64,000 bases of DNA. Source: Escherichia phage vB_EcoP_IMEP8. A model generated the notes under the pieces. The model was not told where the DNA came from. It did no database searches and worked only from the letters and a program-made list of their open reading frames with translations. Of this stretch, positions 2,112 through 8,972 are shown one piece after another. Positions within the stretch are counted from its first letter, which is position 1. Each line of letters starts with the position of its first letter. A program made the position numbers and the translations under genes. The stretch lies in the sequence record NC_070993.1. One strand, 5' to 3'.

Positions 2112-3653
2112 ATGTCATTAGATAAACAAATTTATGAAGCTCTAACTGGTAACAACCTTAGTGTAGATGAAAAGAAAGCACTATTGAATATGTTGAAAGA
2201 GCGTGACCAATGGAGGAAGTATAATAGGATTTTGTCTTTCAAGGCGTATGACTTCCAAAAGAAATTTTATGCAGCAGGATTGAAGCATCGCTTTAGATTC
2301 TTGTGTGCAGCGAACCGTGTTGGTAAATCTTATAGCGAGGCATACGAGTTTGCTTGTCATGTCACAGGTCGCTACCCAACTTGGTGGACAGGGTATAAAT
2401 TTAAAAGACCTATCTTAGCATGGGCAGTAGGTATTACAGGGGATTCCACAAGGAAGGTATTGCAAAAGGAATTGTTTGGTACACCTATCGGAAAGGATAC
2501 AAATTTATTAGGGACAGGTGTCATTCCTCGTGATGCTATCGTCATTGATACGATAGAACGAGATGGTAACAAACTTCAAATCGTACAAATCAAACATCAA
2601 AATGAGAGAGGAGAGTTTGACGGTTTAAGTACATTAGAATTCCGTTCAACCCAACAGGGTGAACACACATTGATGGGTGCAACAGTTGACTACATTTGGT
2701 TAGACGAAGAAGATCCATACGAGTCTATGGCTATATTCGCACAGTGCGTCACACGTACACTCACAACTAAAGGTCTAGTTACAATTACAGCTACACCAGA
2801 GAACGGTTTAACTGAACTGGTAGATAAATTTATGAAAGGTGAAGGGGATGAGAGCACAGGTTCTCTATATTTCCAGAATGCTTCTTGGTGGGATGCTCAT
2901 GCAGACCTAGGTGGACATATCACTGACCAAGATATAAAAGATATGACTGAAGGTATTCCAGCGTGGCAGTTAGAGATGCGTTCAAAAGGTATGCCATTGT
3001 TAGGAAGTGGTTTGATATATGATGTACCGGATGACACAATTAAATGTGAACCATTCGAAATTCCTGATACGTGGAAACGTGTCTGTGCAATTGATATTGG
3101 TATTGATCACCCAACTGCTGCTGTTTGGACAGCTTACGACGCAAACACGGATACTATCTATGTTTACGACTCATATAAAGAAGGTGGCTTTACTCCAGTG
3201 TATCATGCTCCAGCTATTAATGGTCGTGGTCAGTGGATTCCTGTCATCCTACCGCATGATGCGGACAATATTGAGAAAGGTAGTGGCTCATCTGTTGCTC
3301 AGTTCTATAAGAATGCAGGAGTTAACGTACAGAGTGAGACCTTCTACAACAAAATTGGAATGGATGGTAAAAAGAACTTCTTTGTAGAACCGGGAATCAC
3401 AGATATCCGAGAAAGAATGATGAGTGGACGCTTTAAAGTCTTTAACACAGCCGCTAACGCTAAGCTATTCGAAGAGAAAGCTAGATATCACCGTAAGGTT
3501 GGTAAGATTATTAAAGAACATGATGACTTAATGGATGCAATGCGCTATTCAGCGTGCTCTGTTACACATCGTGGTCGCTCTAAGCATGATGTTAGCTACG
3601 GAAGCGCTTCTTTGTATGAGGCAAACGTAAGCAGATGGAATCAGAGCTACTAA
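2112..3653 (+). CDS. terminase large subunit (513 aa)
   Basis: Walker A-like NRVGKS, Walker B-like IWLDEED, RNaseH-like nuclease region (AIDIGIDHPTAAVW); size and position typical of TerL. Confidence 0.9.
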   Translation: MSLDKQIYEALTGNNLSVDEKKALLNMLKERDQWRKYNRILSFKAYDFQKKFYAAGLKHRFRFLCAANRVGKSYSEAYEFACHVTGRYPTWWTGYKFKRPILAWAVGITGDSTRKVLQKELFGTPIGKDTNLLGTGVIPRDAIVIDTIERDGNKLQIVQIKHQNERGEFDGLSTLEFRSTQQGEHTLMGATVDYIWLDEEDPYESMAIFAQCVTRTLTTKGLVTITATPENGLTELVDKFMKGEGDESTGSLYFQNASWWDAHADLGGHITDQDIKDMTEGIPAWQLEMRSKGMPLLGSGLIYDVPDDTIKCEPFEIPDTWKRVCAIDIGIDHPTAAVWTAYDANTDTIYVYDSYKEGGFTPVYHAPAINGRGQWIPVILPHDADNIEKGSGSSVAQFYKNAGVNVQSETFYNKIGMDGKKNFFVEPGITDIRERMMSGRFKVFNTAANAKLFEEKARYHRKVGKIIKEHDDLMDAMRYSACSVTHRGRSKHDVSYGSASLYEANVSRWNQSY

Positions 3654-3658
3654 AGTAA

Positions 3659-3688
3659 GGGGGAGGTTTGTCCTCCCTTCTTTTATTT
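3659..3688 (+). terminator. putative terminator or attenuator
   Basis: GGGAGG-TTTGT-CCTCCC hairpin followed by a T-rich run after the TerL stop. Confidence 0.4.
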
Positions 3689-3714
3689 AAGCTATCAACC
3701 GAGGGAGAGAATAG

Positions 3715-5958
3715 ATGGCTAAGCAAAAATATAGTGAAGAGGTGTTGGACGAGTTACGTGTTGACCTTCAACGTCGTTTTAATTACGCTCAAGGTTACGT
3801 TGACATGGCTGTTAAGGGCTATGCTCGTGAAGCTTGGGAATATTTCTATGGTAACTTACCTGCACCAGTAACTGCTGGCAGCTCTAGTTGGGTAGATCGT
3901 ACTGTTTGGGAATCTGTTAACGGTACATTGCAAGATATTATTAACGTATTCTGTTCTGGTGATGAAGCAGTTACTTTTGTGGCTGACAACCAACAGGACT
4001 CTGATGCTGCTGATGTAGCAACTAAACTAGTTAACCAAATTCTTCTGCGTGATAATCCGGGATACAATATTATCTCTTCTGCTGCACAAGAATGTCTGGT
4101 TACTCGTAACTCTTTTATCAAATATTATTGGGATGAGCACACTTCTACTCAAACTGAAGAGGCTGAAGGTGTACCACCGGAAGCATTAGCTGCATATGTT
4201 CAGGGATTAGAAGCTGGTGGACTCAAGAATCTGGAAGTCTTCACTGAAGAAAATGAAGATGGTACAGTTGATGTTAAAGTTACTTACGAACAAACTGTTA
4301 AACGCGTGAAGGTTGAATATGTTCCTTCAGAGCAAATCTTTGTTGACGAACATGCTACCTCTTTTGCAGATGCACAATACTTCTGTCATCGTGTACGTCG
4401 TTCTAAAGAAGATCTGGTTGCTATGGGCTTCCCTAAAGATGAGATTGAAGCATTCAACGACTGGACAGATACGATGGATACTACTCAATCTACAGTTGCT
4501 TGGTCTCGTACTGACTGGCGTCAGGATATTGATGCTGATATTGGTACAGATACCGAAGATATCGCTTCTATGGTTTGGGTTTATGAGCACTACATTCGTA
4601 CTGGTGTTCTAAATAAGAATAAAGAGTCTAAACTCTATCAGGTTATTCAAGCTGGTGAGCATATCCTTCACACTGAAGAAGTAACTCACATTCCGTTTGT
4701 AACCTTCTGCCCATATCCTATTCCGGGTTCCTTCTATGGTCAATCAGTCTATGACATTACGAAAGATATTCAAGATTTACGTACCGCGTTAGTTCGTGGT
4801 TATATTGATAACGTCAACAATGCTAACTATGGTCGATACAAAGCTCTTGTTGGTGCATATGATCGTCGCTCTCTGCTTGATAACCGTCCCGGTGGAGTGG
4901 TTGAAATGGAACGTCAGGACGCTATTGACCTGTTCCCATATCATAACCTACCTCAAGGTATTGACGGCCTCCTAGGCATGTCTGAGGAGCTTAAAGAGAC
5001 ACGTACAGGTGTAACCAAACTAGGCATGGGTATCAACCCTGATGTGTTTAAGAATGATAACGCTTATGCAACCGTAGGCTTGATGATGAATGCTGCACAG
5101 AACCGTCTCCGTATGGTATGTCGTAACATTGCTCACAACGGTATGGTTGAATTGATGCGTGGTATTTACAACCTTATCAGAGAAAATGGTGAAGTTCCTA
5201 TCGAGGTACAAACCCCTCGTGGTATGATTCAGGTAAATCCGAAACAATTGCCAGCTCGCCACAATCTTCAAGTTGTTGTAGCTATCTCTCCTAACGAGAA
5301 AGCAGAACGTGCACAGAAACTGATTAGCTTGAAACAGCTGATTGCAGCAGATGCACAGTTAGCACCTCTCTTTGGTTTGGAGCAAGACCGTTACATGACT
5401 GCACAGATCTTTGAGTTGATGGGTATTAAAGATACTCATAAATACCTTCTGCCTCTGGAACAGTATCAGCCTCCTGAGCCGTCTCCGATGGAAATCCTCC
5501 AGCTCGAGATGACTAAAGCACAGGTTGAGAACGTACAGGCTTCTTCTCAGAAGATGATTGCTGATGCATTCGACCAACGTGAACGTACTACATTCGAACA
5601 GCAGAAAGCTGCGGATGAATTAAGTCTGCGTCAGGAAGAGTTGCAGTTCAAGCAAGAAAATGCAGCAGATGCAATGACTCTGGAAAACCGTAAAGAAGAT
5701 AACAATGCTACTCTGGAACAAGCTAAGCACAAGTTAGCTCTTATGCAACAGCAGGTCCGTCAGTATGAATCTGTACTGAAAGAATTGCAGATGGTTATGT
5801 CTCATCAGGTAGACCAAGAGAAGATTGTTCAGCAAGCTCGTGTTCAGGATAAAACTTTGGAACTCCAAAAGAAAGAGGCTAATGTAACTAAGAAAGAGCA
5901 ACAAGCTTCTCTCAAAGATTCACGGATTCCAGGCAAACGTCTTGGAAGTAAAAACTAA
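3715..5958 (+). CDS. portal protein (747 aa)
   Basis: Large protein between TerL and scaffold; C-terminal coiled-coil/charged tail; canonical gene order. Confidence 0.75.
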   Translation: MAKQKYSEEVLDELRVDLQRRFNYAQGYVDMAVKGYAREAWEYFYGNLPAPVTAGSSSWVDRTVWESVNGTLQDIINVFCSGDEAVTFVADNQQDSDAADVATKLVNQILLRDNPGYNIISSAAQECLVTRNSFIKYYWDEHTSTQTEEAEGVPPEALAAYVQGLEAGGLKNLEVFTEENEDGTVDVKVTYEQTVKRVKVEYVPSEQIFVDEHATSFADAQYFCHRVRRSKEDLVAMGFPKDEIEAFNDWTDTMDTTQSTVAWSRTDWRQDIDADIGTDTEDIASMVWVYEHYIRTGVLNKNKESKLYQVIQAGEHILHTEEVTHIPFVTFCPYPIPGSFYGQSVYDITKDIQDLRTALVRGYIDNVNNANYGRYKALVGAYDRRSLLDNRPGGVVEMERQDAIDLFPYHNLPQGIDGLLGMSEELKETRTGVTKLGMGINPDVFKNDNAYATVGLMMNAAQNRLRMVCRNIAHNGMVELMRGIYNLIRENGEVPIEVQTPRGMIQVNPKQLPARHNLQVVVAISPNEKAERAQKLISLKQLIAADAQLAPLFGLEQDRYMTAQIFELMGIKDTHKYLLPLEQYQPPEPSPMEILQLEMTKAQVENVQASSQKMIADAFDQRERTTFEQQKAADELSLRQEELQFKQENAADAMTLENRKEDNNATLEQAKHKLALMQQQVRQYESVLKELQMVMSHQVDQEKIVQQARVQDKTLELQKKEANVTKKEQQASLKDSRIPGKRLGSKN

Positions 5959-7289: not shown

Positions 7290-7330
7290 TCGACAAATTA
7301 AATTATTAATAGTATAGGAGCTAACATAAC

Positions 7331-8389
7331 ATGGCTAATCCAACTTTATTTGTATCGTATGACCAGAATGGTAAAAAACTTTCTTTTGCTAACTGGATTT
7401 CTGTTCTGTCCCCTCAGGATACCCCGTTCGTATCTATGACCGGTAAAGAGTCTATCAACCAGACTATCTTTAGCTGGCAGACCGATGCACTGGCAAGCGT
7501 TGACGGTAATAACGCACACGTCGAAGGCTCTCGTGCTGAAGACGGCGAAATGAAACCGACTGTTATCAAATCTAACGTTACTCAGATTCTGCGTAAGGTT
7601 GTTCGTGTTTCTGATACTGCTAACACCACCGCTAACTACGGTCGTGGTCGTGAACTGATGTATCAGCTGGAGAAGAAAGGTAAAGAGATCAAGCGTGACC
7701 TCGAGAAAATCCTTCTGTCCGGTCAGGCTCGTACCGACGTTCTGGCTGACCAGTACCTGACTAACTCTGCAACTGATCCTGCAACTGTTGGTCTGAACGA
7801 CACTCATGCAGCTCGTAAGACTGGTGCATTCCAGTTCCTGTGTGCTCACGGTGGTCTGGCTGGTGGCGTTGTTGACAAGACCAAGAATGGTCCTGCTGAC
7901 CCGGATACTGGTGCAGTAACTGTTAAAGTTGCACAGAATGCTTCTAACCCGACCACTAACATTGGTTTCGACGAAGCTGATATCTTTGATATGACCCTGC
8001 AACTGTATACCGCTGGTTCTGAAGCAGATATCATCATGATTAACCCAGCTCATGCTAAGATCTTCGCTGGTCTGCAAGAAAATACTCAGGGTTCACGTAA
8101 GCGTATCTTTGAGAACACCAAGCAGTTCATCTACGAAGTTAACAGCATCACTGACCCGCTGGGCCAGAGCTACAAAATCATCGTTAACCGTTGGATGCCT
8201 ACCGATGCAGTTTACTTCTTCCGTAGCGCTGACTGGACCCAGATGGTTCTGCGTGCTCCGAAACGTACTGAACTGGCTAAAGATGGTTCTTACGAGAAGT
8301 GGATGATTGAAATGGAAGTTGGTCTGCGTCACCGCAACCCGTACGCTTCCGGCGTTCTGTTCACTGCTGCGGGAAAGGTGGCGGCGTAA
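7331..8389 (+). CDS. major capsid protein (352 aa)
   Basis: Position after scaffold; size and composition consistent with an HK97-fold coat protein; followed by an Ig-like ORF reachable by -1 shift. Confidence 0.75.
   Translation: MANPTLFVSYDQNGKKLSFANWISVLSPQDTPFVSMTGKESINQTIFSWQTDALASVDGNNAHVEGSRAEDGEMKPTVIKSNVTQILRKVVRVSDTANTTANYGRGRELMYQLEKKGKEIKRDLEKILLSGQARTDVLADQYLTNSATDPATVGLNDTHAARKTGAFQFLCAHGGLAGGVVDKTKNGPADPDTGAVTVKVAQNASNPTTNIGFDEADIFDMTLQLYTAGSEADIIMINPAHAKIFAGLQENTQGSRKRIFENTKQFIYEVNSITDPLGQSYKIIVNRWMPTDAVYFFRSADWTQMVLRAPKRTELAKDGSYEKWMIEMEVGLRHRNPYASGVLFTAAGKVAA
8371..8377 (+). promoter_or_regulatory. candidate -1 programmed ribosomal frameshift slippery heptamer G_GGA_AAG
   Basis: Heptamer GGGAAAG sits in the capsid zero frame (codons GGA AAG) 4 codons before the stop; the -1 frame is open from 8311 through 8913. 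Confidence 0.5.
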
Positions 8390-8400
8390 CAGTAGACAGT

Positions 8401-8913
8401 GTGACTGTTAGCCCTGCGTCTTTAGCAAGTCTAGAGACAGGGGCTACTCGGCAGTTCACTGCAAGCGCGGAGAAAAGTGATGGTTCTACCGAAACAACTG
8501 GCTTTACTTGGTCAGTGACAGGAGGTGGTTCTATCACTCAGTCGGGTTTGTATACTGCTCCGAGTGCGTCTCAATCCACTGATGTATCCATTACTGCAAC
8601 TTTAGAGGGTGTTTCTGGTACAGCAACCATTTCTGAAATTGTTGCTCCTGCTCCTACTATTGTAGCTAAGGGTCCAATTACGGGTAAAACTGGTGGTTCC
8701 TCCACTAATTTCACTACCATGTTTACTGTAACTAATTCTGCTGCTGCGGATTACACGTTTGTTGTAACTCCTACAGAAGCTGGTACAGTAAGCGCCGCTG
8801 GTGCGTTAACCTTAGATGCTGCTGCAAGTGGCGAAGTTACTGTTCAAGCAAGTTTGACAGCTGACCCGTCCATCAATGCAACATGCACTTTTACTGGTGT
8901 AACACCTGCTTAA
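8401..8913 (+). CDS. Ig-like (Big_2-type) domain ORF, probable C-terminal extension of capsid protein via -1 frameshift
   Basis: No RBS in the 11 nt between capsid stop and this ORF; Thr/Ser/Ala-rich beta-strand pattern typical of bacterial Ig-like domains; frame is -1 relative to the capsid gene. Confidence 0.55.
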   Translation: MTVSPASLASLETGATRQFTASAEKSDGSTETTGFTWSVTGGGSITQSGLYTAPSASQSTDVSITATLEGVSGTATISEIVAPAPTIVAKGPITGKTGGSSTNFTTMFTVTNSAAADYTFVVTPTEAGTVSAAGALTLDAAASGEVTVQASLTADPSINATCTFTGVTPA

Positions 8914-8920
8914 AACTAGA

Positions 8921-8946
8921 CCCTGCCTTCGGGCGGGGTTTTTTCG
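8921..8946 (+). terminator. rho-independent terminator
   Basis: CCCTGCC-TTCG-GGCGGGG hairpin followed by TTTTTT. Confidence 0.65.
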
Positions 8947-8972
8947 TTTTAAGACCTATACAAGCCAGTGTG

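Follow-up and report, generated by a model that had tools for sequence, protein, structure and literature searches.

A predicted -1 ribosomal frameshift that would join an Ig-like extension to a minority of major capsid subunits in Escherichia phage vB_EcoP_IMEP8

The window analyzed in this study is the whole 64,000-nucleotide stretch of DNA from Escherichia phage vB_EcoP_IMEP8 (sequence record NC_070993.1). By sequence comparison, the window is that of a Kuravirus (phiEco32-like) coliphage. The region considered here is 98.4% identical to phiEco32 and 99.2% identical to PGN6866, and the part of it that contains the proposed frameshift is one base apart from phiEco32. The features of this region are listed below.

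7316-7320, + strand: Shine-Dalgarno sequence (AGGAG) of the major capsid gene, read from the sequence, 10 nt 5' of the ATG
7331-8389, + strand: major capsid protein gene (zero frame), from the ORF list; 352 aa, 38.7 kDa, stop codon TAA at 8387-8389
8371-8377, + strand: slippery heptamer G_GGA_AAG, checked for the X_XXY_YYZ register; zero-frame codons GCG GGA AAG
8377-8913, + strand: -1 frame extension after the slip; 178 codons and the stop codon TAA at 8911-8913
8387-8410, + strand: candidate stimulatory hairpin, starting 9 nt past the heptamer; stem of 7 bp (UAACAGU/ACUGUUA), loop of 10 nt
8392-8625, + strand: first Ig-like domain (Big_2, Pfam PF02368), residues 28-105 of the frame opened at 8311
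8401-8403, + strand: GTG, 11 nt past the capsid stop, from which annotations begin a separate "Ig domain protein"; ORF to 8913
8641-8910, + strand: second beta-sandwich domain (PHROG 33551/13745); all-beta model, pLDDT 52-80
8918-8951, + strand: Rho-independent terminator, a 10-bp GC-rich stem followed by a T run

The Shine-Dalgarno sequence of the capsid gene has an anti-Shine-Dalgarno pairing energy of -6.5 kcal/mol. The capsid protein matches the Pfam family PF17236 (SU10_MCP) over its full length (E 6e-77; 259 bits against a cut-off of 24.1), its residues 1-350 align to the SU10 capsid protein chain 7z45_A (E 1e-233), and it is 100% identical to the capsid protein of PGN6866. Judged by its sequence matches, the protein has the HK97 fold and belongs to the SU10_MCP family, as in Kuravirus. 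The terminator is a strong one and closes the capsid unit just after the extension ORF, and the SU10 record annotates a terminator at the corresponding place. No terminator was found between the capsid stop codon and the Ig ORF.

The first-pass annotation of this DNA, made from the sequence alone, had placed the end of the capsid frame at 8389 and a GTG codon 11 nt further on, and both are in the ORF list. The Ig-like frame was said to be open from 8311 and to overlap the capsid gene by 26 codons. This was borne out, as the frame lies at -1 relative to the capsid frame, is closed upstream by the TGA at 8308-8310, and shares 79 nt (26 codons) with the capsid gene. From the end of GGGAAAG to the last base of the capsid stop codon there are 12 nt, and the exact X_XXY_YYZ register of the heptamer, also claimed earlier, was confirmed by the zero-frame codons GGA AAG. 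The conceptual -1 product has the junction ...FTAAGK/GGGVTVDSVTVSPASL, and the residues on either side of the junction read AAGK/GGGVTVDS. Its length is 527 aa, as had been stated, and its computed mass is 55.6 kDa and not the approximately 57 kDa given before. The +1 frame at the end of the capsid gene is open for only 34 codons (8307-8411), and therefore no +1 product is possible.

The bare heptamer GGGAAAG is not rare in the window. It is present in 7 copies on the two strands, which is about the random expectation (approximately 8 in 128 kb at a frequency of 1/16384). Only the copy at 8371 combines the slip register with a 355-codon ORF and a 178-codon continuation in the -1 frame. The other six copies were considered as frameshift sites and rejected, as they lie in frames of only 13-41 codons. 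An in-register GGGAAAG within the last 30 codons, followed by a -1 extension of more than 100 codons, was found for the capsid gene only among the 21 long frames of the + strand. In addition, the last 150 nt of the capsid gene contain no in-register heptamer besides GGGAAAG at 8371-8377.

The -1 extension matches PHROG 13745, "Ig domain containing protein" (E 1e-80). Its first domain passes the Big_2 gathering threshold narrowly (24.1 bits against 22.8), and the AlphaFold model of this domain has a pLDDT of about 97 over residues 10-90. In Foldseek, the Ig model has its top matches in the tandem Big_2 domains of LigA (E 1e-8) and in the phi29 capsid Ig domain, and the matches of the extension model also include a Hoc structure. 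The second domain scores below the threshold for Big_2 (about 17.2 bits), and it is called a probable Ig-like domain solely from its PHROG families and its all-beta model. The extension as a whole models as two tandem Ig-like beta-sandwiches, so that the earlier description of an Ig-like extension stands and that of a single domain does not. A module homologous to the second domain is found in frame on the capsid protein in the metagenomic sequence P0020, and it is repeated in the YF01 product P0001 and in the longer extensions of relatives. For example, the extension is 372-541 codons long in EP335, Bas87 and Bas88, with 541 codons in YF01 and Bas88.

All 13 sequences of the Kuravirus group have GGGAAAG unchanged and in register, while the codons that flank it vary and a 3-nt indel occurs directly after it. 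Privateervirus (57% capsid identity) also has GGGAAAG in register, although its C-terminal tail differs and only 3 nt separate the heptamer from the stop codon. Conservation of the heptamer and the overlap had been proposed as a check on the frameshift, and both are kept in relatives. More distant relatives have other slip sites. PJNS034 (42% identity) has C_CCA_AAA, which leads into a 132-codon Ig ORF, and metagenomic and Aeromonas relatives have G_GTA_AAG, followed after 6 nt by a strong GC hairpin (z -4). A_AAA_AAG is another canonical ribosomal heptamer that replaces the slip site in relatives. All shifts in the clades compared are -1. The -1 ORF is conserved as a protein across genera, with many amino acid substitutions and no stops, and the type of Ig domain differs by clade, with Big_2, I-set and Ig_3 domains swapped.

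Other relatives encode the joined protein directly. The 7-11-like phages SE131 and GAP52 have a second, paralogous capsid gene that includes Ig domains in frame, and the metagenomic sequences P0020, P0061, P0063 and P0067 are in-frame capsid-Ig fusions, of which P0020 has the second domain of the window. Given these in-frame fusions and paralogues, the sequence comparison indicates that the covalent capsid-Ig fusion is the selected product. In GenBank, the slippage product of YF01 (P0001) is 86% identical to the conceptual fusion over 99% of its length, and the junction of P0001, AAGK/GSGGVTVD, is at the same point as the junction predicted here. The deposited SU10 sequence has a 1-nt insertion, and its -1 frame stops after 11 codons. 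Across the relatives, the routes to an Ig-tagged subunit comprise GGGAAAG, CCCAAAA, the non-canonical G_GTA_AAG with a GC hairpin, an in-frame paralogue and an in-frame fusion.

The reading that we favor, with a probability of about 0.88, is that a minority of ribosomes slips by -1 on G_GGA_AAG and makes a predicted capsid isoform with a C-terminal Ig extension. Most ribosomes on the late capsid mRNA would stop at the TAA at 8387-8389 and release the 352-aa major capsid protein. A minority would slip back one base with GGA and AAG in the P and A sites. The slipped tRNAs would re-pair, from GGA to GGG and from AAG to AAA, and reading would go on in the -1 frame to 8913. In the long product, the last three capsid residues (VAA) would be swapped for a GGG linker and two tandem Ig-like domains. 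This isoform would co-assemble with the normal subunit, and its Ig domains would presumably be shown on the outside of the prolate head because the HK97-fold body of the long isoform is unchanged. Slipping may be made more frequent by the conserved 7-bp hairpin that lies 9 nt past the heptamer. The Ig domains are probably weak carbohydrate or surface adhesins. This analysis established how the site is built, that it is conserved, that the Ig frame lacks a start of its own and that its product has an Ig-like fold. The frameshift interpretation of the first-pass annotation agrees with the literature on this phage group and with all comparative tests that were run.

Three other explanations of the locus were weighed. 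The Ig ORF could be translated alone from the GTG at 8401, giving a separate protein of 16.6 kDa that would attach to the head non-covalently, as a decoration or minor capsid protein, and we regard this as improbable. The GTG does sit 11 nt past the capsid stop, nearly all of the inspected GenBank records give the capsid and the Ig ORF as two separate CDSs, the SU10 cryo-EM paper treats gp10 in the same way, and separate Ig decoration proteins occur elsewhere, for example Hoc of T4. However, the best anti-Shine-Dalgarno pairing upstream of the GTG is only -4.8 kcal/mol, where 22 long ORFs in the window have a median of -8.45 kcal/mol. Pairing as good as this is found at 16% of random positions, so that the earlier statement that the GTG has no ribosome-binding site is approximately right, a weak pairing being present. 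In NJ01, KBNP1711, Bas87, Bas88 and EP335, GTA or ATA stands in place of the GTG, and the earliest codon at which translation could begin comes 33-126 nt into the ORF, already inside the Big_2 domain. Even so, the -1 frame of each of these sequences has no stop codon as far back as the heptamer. The first start codon after the capsid stop is 177 nt away in Privateervirus and 75 nt away in PJNS034, and in the window the GTG lies 9 nt inside the Pfam Big_2 match. From these comparisons, translation probably does not begin at the GTG at 8401, and the in-frame fusions and capsid-Ig paralogues of relatives favor the covalent form over an independent Ig protein. The first-pass annotation had itself named translation from this GTG among the outcomes that would count against a frameshift, and the sequence check found that the GTG is not conserved and lacks a good Shine-Dalgarno sequence in front of it.

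It is less probable still, and we consider it very unlikely, that the heptamer and the downstream ORF stand together by chance or as a decaying remnant, with no frameshifting and the Ig ORF unexpressed. This reading would fit the count of GGGAAAG in the window, the statistically ordinary folding energy of the hairpin, and SU10, which forms normal virions without an open -1 frame. Against it, the -1 ORF is kept as a protein across genera and has been expanded to 372-541 codons in some relatives, the heptamer is invariant while adjacent synonymous sites vary, and in other clades the slip signal and the Ig type have been replaced and the -1 architecture stays. The longer capsid band reported for Privateer, with its mass spectrometry, also speaks against this reading (PMC7881722). 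The last explanation, to which we give almost no credence, is transcriptional slippage at the G3A3 run, by which RNA polymerase would lose or gain a base. Known transcriptional slippage needs long homopolymer runs, typically of 7 or more A or T, and it was rejected here because the runs, of only 3 G and 3 A, are too short. Moreover, the X_XXY_YYZ register is fixed relative to the capsid frame in 13 of 13 sequences, and the site is replaced in relatives by the canonical ribosomal heptamers C_CCA_AAA and A_AAA_AAG. Both observations are hallmarks of tandem tRNA re-pairing. These points stand against this explanation, although bacteria and phages are known to make trans-frame products by transcriptional slippage as well (reviewed in PMC5009743).

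For the proposed ribosomal -1 slip, the candidate stimulator is the hairpin at 8387-8410. An extended form of this hairpin, with two bulges, spans 8378-8417 and has a folding energy of -15.5 kcal/mol. Compared with shuffled sequences, the folding is not significant in the window (z -1.25 to -1.5). In an alignment of 11 sequences, all 14 columns of the stem are invariant, compared with 19 variable columns among the 40 around it (Fisher p 0.0009), and of the third codon positions of the -1 frame, 0 of 4 are variable within the stem, compared with 12 of 14 outside. In the same 11 sequences, 97.9% of the cells are paired and the covariation test found no compensatory changes. It is suppressed variation alone that argues for the hairpin. 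The stem takes in the capsid stop codon. No Shine-Dalgarno-like element was found in the sequence upstream of the heptamer.

In SU10, the signal proposed was a stem-loop whose loop contains the slip site (PMC4281155). The structure of this type in the window (8360-8400) has a folding energy of -9.1 kcal/mol and a z of -0.23, no better than shuffled sequences. It was rejected as a stimulator on this score and also because a ribosome that occupies the heptamer would melt the stem. The hairpin as a stimulator, together with the series of routes by which this capsid family arrives at a sub-stoichiometric Ig-tagged subunit, may be undescribed, although we would put this at somewhat less than an even chance.

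The capsid -1 frameshift with an Ig extension in phiEco32-like phages is already published and is not new. The same capsid frameshift signal was published for SU10 in 2014, citing phiEco32 in 2008 (PMC4281155). For Privateer (2021), the same heptamer was reported, SDS-PAGE showed two bands of capsid protein, and mass spectrometry detected the minor form (PMC7881722). According to a passage in the Privateer paper, the frameshifted product of phiEco32 was also observed (PMC7881722). The YF01 paper (2023) described the slippage for the whole phage group (PMC9965538). A longer capsid form in the virions of the present phage would be expected by analogy with this literature on close relatives.

Mass spectrometry of SU10 gave 22 peptides and 50.3% coverage for "9+10", and 23 peptides and 78.1% coverage for gp9 alone (PMC4281155). 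By arithmetic on these published figures, the coverage is nearly equal in residues, approximately 265 for "9+10" and 275 for gp9. Because the covered residues are about equal, the "9+10" match could consist of shared capsid peptides only, and the SU10 figures are weak as proof of the extension. The cryo-EM capsid of SU10 has no Ig density, and its authors suggested that gp10 is perhaps a minor capsid protein lost in purification (PMC9509320). With its -1 frame lost, SU10 still forms normal virions. The extension appears dispensable because the SU10 frame is cut short and the SU10 capsid lacks Ig density. Two further reports were set aside. A role of the capsid Ig domain of ES17 in mucin binding was rejected, as the authors credit the tail fiber instead (PMC7885116), and the mention of a "frameshift" in PMC10386132 is unrelated.

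The closest known systems are phiEco32 gp11/gp12, SU10 CDS9/10, YF01 gp8, Paul and Privateer, which have the same gene, the heptamer GGGAAAG, the -1 direction and a Big_2-type extension. Compared with the 541 codons of YF01 and Bas88, the extension here is short (178 codons), as in phiEco32, and unlike SU10 the -1 frame is intact. Ig-like domains on phage structural proteins were reportedly described by Fraser et al. in 2006. The lambda G/GT system has the identical heptamer G_GGA_AAG, which Levin, Hendrix and Casjens are said to have identified in 1993, as well as the -1 direction and a low shift percentage. However, its product is a tail assembly chaperone outside the virion, with no Ig domain. 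A shift of approximately 3.5% in lambda is quoted in a passage of PMC9965538.

Recoding of Ig-like domains onto phage structural proteins has been described by Atkins et al. 2016 (PMC5009743). The 10A/10B system of T3 and T7 is likewise a -1 frameshift at the 3' end of a podophage capsid gene, with a minor longer subunit that co-assembles (PMC5009743). The T3 10B extension is Ig-like, as is the one here (PMC5009743; PMC9965538). The capsid family of T3 and T7 is unrelated in sequence and uses another slip site. T7 had been cited earlier as an example of an Ig-like domain added by frameshifting. It serves as an example of a capsid frameshift, but it is imperfect for the Ig domain because the T7 extension is short and not Ig-like, and T3 is the phage that fits (PMC5009743).

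The gp8 protein of phi29 and the second capsid paralogues of Salmonella phage 7-11/SE131 and Cronobacter phage GAP52 are HK97-fold capsid proteins with C-terminal Big_2-type domains. The capsid family of SE131 and GAP52 is that of the window, and the two phages are its relatives. In contrast to the present locus, phi29 gp8 involves no recoding and carries the domain on every subunit, and in the 7-11-like phages (7-11/SE131, GAP52) the ratio is set by two genes and not by slip frequency. Hoc of T4 also has tandem Ig-like domains on the head, is dispensable in the laboratory and has been proposed to adhere weakly to glycans or mucus. The BAM model of mucus adherence is discussed in PMC7885116. 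Hoc differs in that it is a separate polypeptide at the centers of capsomers, whereas here the domains would be covalently attached to a subset of capsid subunits.

For science at large, the locus carries little weight, as it adds a further case to a kind of recoding that is already published. Its consequence for annotation is more direct. The capsid isoform is absent from most protein sets because the inspected GenBank records all leave the two CDSs unjoined, and several of them label the second ORF a "hypothetical protein" or begin it at an arbitrary internal codon. In the engineering or therapeutic use of Kuravirus phages, Ig-tagged subunits, as presumed surface features, could affect adherence, pharmacokinetics or immunogenicity. 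SU10 has lost the Ig extension without loss of viability, and the slip site would be a natural spot for sub-stoichiometric display on the capsid.

The 3' end of the major capsid protein gene carries a -1 frameshift signal predicted to extend the capsid protein with Ig-like domains. This capsid frameshift is already known, and the window is one more phiEco32-group isolate in which the signal is intact. The features concerned are the following.

7331-8389, + strand: major capsid protein gene of Kuravirus type, 352 aa (ORF listing)
8371-8377, + strand: slippery heptamer GGGAAAG, zero-frame codons GGA AAG
8387-8410, + strand: candidate hairpin, 9 nt past the heptamer, with a 7-bp stem (UAACAGU 8387-8393, ACUGUUA 8404-8410)
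8401 (GTG) to 8913, + strand: ORF usually annotated "Ig domain containing protein", 11 bases past the capsid stop
8918-8951, + strand: strong rho-independent terminator, 5 nt past the end of the extension ORF

The Ig ORF lies in the -1 frame of the capsid gene; that frame opens at 8311. A slip at the heptamer would yield a conceptual product of 527 aa and 55.6 kDa with the junction FTAAGK/GGGVTVDS. The positions given in the first-pass annotation for the capsid ORF, the -1 frame, the heptamer and the 527-aa product all agreed with the sequence. GGGAAAG occurs seven times on both strands of the window, close to random expectation. Of these, the copy at 8371 alone combines slip register within a long ORF with 178 open codons downstream; the other six lie inside frames of only 13-41 codons. 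The final 150 nt of the capsid gene contain no further in-register X_XXY_YYZ heptamer, and a stop ends the +1 frame after 34 codons.

The capsid protein matched the Pfam SU10_MCP profile (259 bits), and its residues 1-350 aligned with the phage SU10 cryo-EM chain 7z45_A (E 1e-233). The gene neighbours a portal, a scaffold and an SU10-type adaptor. Nucleotide identity over the 1.6-kb region was 99.2% with PGN6866 and 98.4% with phiEco32.

Privateer uses the same heptamer, and its two capsid bands were seen on SDS-PAGE, with the minor form detected by mass spectrometry (PMC7881722). According to the same paper, phiEco32 and SU10 had also yielded the frameshifted product, and slippage throughout the Kuravirus-like group is described in the YF01 paper (PMC9965538). 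In GenBank, the YF01 capsid protein (P0001, 892 aa) aligns with 99% of the conceptual fusion (86% identity) and has the junction AAGK/GSGGVTVD. Addition of Ig-like domains to phage structural proteins by frameshifting has been reviewed as a general phenomenon (PMC5009743). The first-pass annotation had offered T7 10A/10B as an Ig-like example; T7 does have the capsid frameshift, but the Ig-like extension belongs to T3, not T7 (PMC5009743). Among the GenBank entries inspected, the fused product was present only for YF01. None of the inspected records (L001, L002, L003, L004, L011 and L023-L027) annotates a joined or slippage CDS. Their second ORF goes by "major head protein", "Ig domain protein" or hypothetical protein, its start is chosen arbitrarily, and the PGN6866 record does not annotate it at all. 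Three points add modestly to the accessible literature: the downstream hairpin with its suppressed synonymous variation, the survey of slip sites and in-frame arrangements in this capsid family, and the weak proteomic case for SU10.

All 13 Kuravirus-group sequences compared retain GGGAAAG unchanged and in register, at 12 or 15 nt from the stop (the window, phiEco32, SU10, ShigP1, NJ01, KBNP1711, MN05, IME267, EP335, Bas87, Bas88 and two IMG/VR contigs). Directly past it, the codons differ (GTG GCG, GCG GGA or GCA GTG GCG), with a 3-nt indel among the differences. Together with Privateervirus, these sequences bear out the proposed conservation of the heptamer and the -1 overlap.

Slip sites and extensions in more distant relatives (percentages are capsid identity).
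Privateervirus (Proteus P59, Cronobacter 009), 57%: GGGAAAG, 3 nt before the stop; different C-terminal tail; 169-aa extension past the slip, I-set and Big_2
E. coli phage PJNS034, 42%: C_CCA_AAA at 3885-3891; 132 codons, Ig_2/I-set
Three metagenomic IMG/VR contigs (L017-L019), about 65%: non-canonical G_GTA_AAG; two Big_2
Aeromonas phage LAh_6 (L007/L020), 57%: non-canonical G_GTA_AAG; Ig_3/I-set
IMG/VR contig L022, 55%: A_AAA_AAG at 3921-3927; 42 codons, without a recognisable domain

No canonical heptamer was found in L017-L019 or in LAh_6 (3912-3940), yet the long -1 Ig ORF is kept, and G_GTA_AAG is likely the slip site in both, as an A_AAG slip. The sequence downstream of it differs between LAh_6 and the contigs. 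In L017, the one contig of the three that was folded, a strong GC hairpin lies 6 nt downstream (z -4.0). The PJNS034 and L022 heptamers are placed within the capsid gene just as GGGAAAG is. Vibrio phage Vp_R1 (2992-3921, 3984-5081) has no -1 extension behind its capsid gene, and the gene that follows encodes a protein of 366 aa, not a capsid paralogue (20% identity).

The Ig ORF could instead be initiated independently at GTG 8401, the start usually annotated, but this is very improbable. The best anti-Shine-Dalgarno pairing of this codon is -4.8 kcal/mol, against a median of -8.45 for the long ORFs of the window and -11.4 for the next gene, and is equalled by 16% of random positions. The GTG is replaced by GTA or ATA in NJ01, KBNP1711, EP335, Bas87 and Bas88; in these five, a start codon first becomes available 33-126 nt further on, within Big_2, whereas the frame is open back to the heptamer. 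In the window, the Pfam Big_2 match itself starts at 8392, upstream of the GTG. The interval from the capsid stop to the Ig ORF contains no terminator, the strong one lying only at 8918-8951, so the capsid gene and its extension form the end of a transcription unit. Transcriptional slippage as the source of the frame change is implausible, since the runs here are just three bases long. The -1 ribosomal frameshift proposed in the first-pass annotation is thus supported by its publication in relatives, the conserved heptamer and frame, and the weak GTG start.

The 5' arm of the candidate hairpin includes the capsid stop codon. Among 11 Kuravirus-group sequences, all 14 stem columns were invariant, whereas 19 of 40 neighbouring columns were variable (Fisher p 0.0009). 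In the -1 frame, variation at third-codon positions was seen at none of 4 stem sites, one of which also lies in the stop codon, versus 12 of 14 outside. Pairing was kept in 97.9% of cells in these 11 sequences, which held no compensatory pairs; the few stem changes are of GC/GU type and confined to the lower, extended part. The extended hairpin (8378-8417) has an unremarkable energy of -15.5 kcal/mol (z -1.5). This pattern of variation is suggestive, but not proof, of RNA-level constraint on the hairpin, which is distinct from the stem-loop of the SU10 authors, who placed the heptamer in the loop (PMC4281155). In the window, the SU10-type stem-loop was no better than shuffles (z -0.23) and would be disrupted by a ribosome occupying the slip site.

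SU10 as deposited (KM044272, about 1566-1582, aligning with window 8396-8412) has a 1-nt insertion in the hairpin loop, 25-26 nt past the heptamer by alignment. Its -1 frame stops after 11 codons, a premature stop remarked on by the YF01 authors (PMC9965538), and the Ig ORF is put into the capsid frame behind two stop codons, TAA and TAG. Ig density is absent from the SU10 cryo-EM head (PMC9509320). Thus, the extension is dispensable for virion production. In the SU10 mass-spectrometry data, gp9 was matched by 23 peptides (78.1% coverage) and "9+10" by 22 (50.3%) (PMC4281155). Computed from the published table, both coverages convert to about 265-275 residues, so the "alternative form" may rest on shared capsid peptides alone.

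The first extension domain is Big_2, a narrow Pfam pass (24.1 bits against a threshold of 22.8), modelled at pLDDT of about 97. The second (about 90 aa, window 8641-8910) is all-beta with moderate model confidence and matched only phage "Ig domain" PHROGs and, below threshold, Big_2. Foldseek matches of the extension model were the LigA tandem Big_2 domains (E 1e-8), the phi29 capsid protein Ig domain and Hoc. The extension comprises 178 codons in the window, 372 in EP335, 455 in Bas87 and 541 in Bas88 and YF01, the added length coming from repeated copies of the second beta-sandwich module of the window. The Ig family switches between clades among Big_2, I-set, Ig_2 and Ig_3. By analogy with T3/T7 10B and phi29, the capsid C-terminus is assumed to be surface-exposed. 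For the related phage ES17, binding to mucin and heparan sulfate was attributed to a tail fibre rather than to capsid Ig domains (PMC7885116).

No frameshift was found in Salmonella phage SE131 (7-11-like) or Cronobacter phage GAP52. Each has a second, adjacent capsid paralogue to which Ig domains are joined in frame (SE131, 1985-2923 and 3001-4761, the second of 586 aa; GAP52, 2992-3948 and 4029-5129), and in the 7-11-like phages gene duplication stands in for frameshifting. Because such paralogues and in-frame fusions occur in relatives, the covalent capsid-Ig protein is the selected product, reached by several routes. The in-frame capsid-Ig fusions include the metagenomic proteins P0020, P0061, P0063 and P0067, and P0020 contains the second domain of the window's extension.
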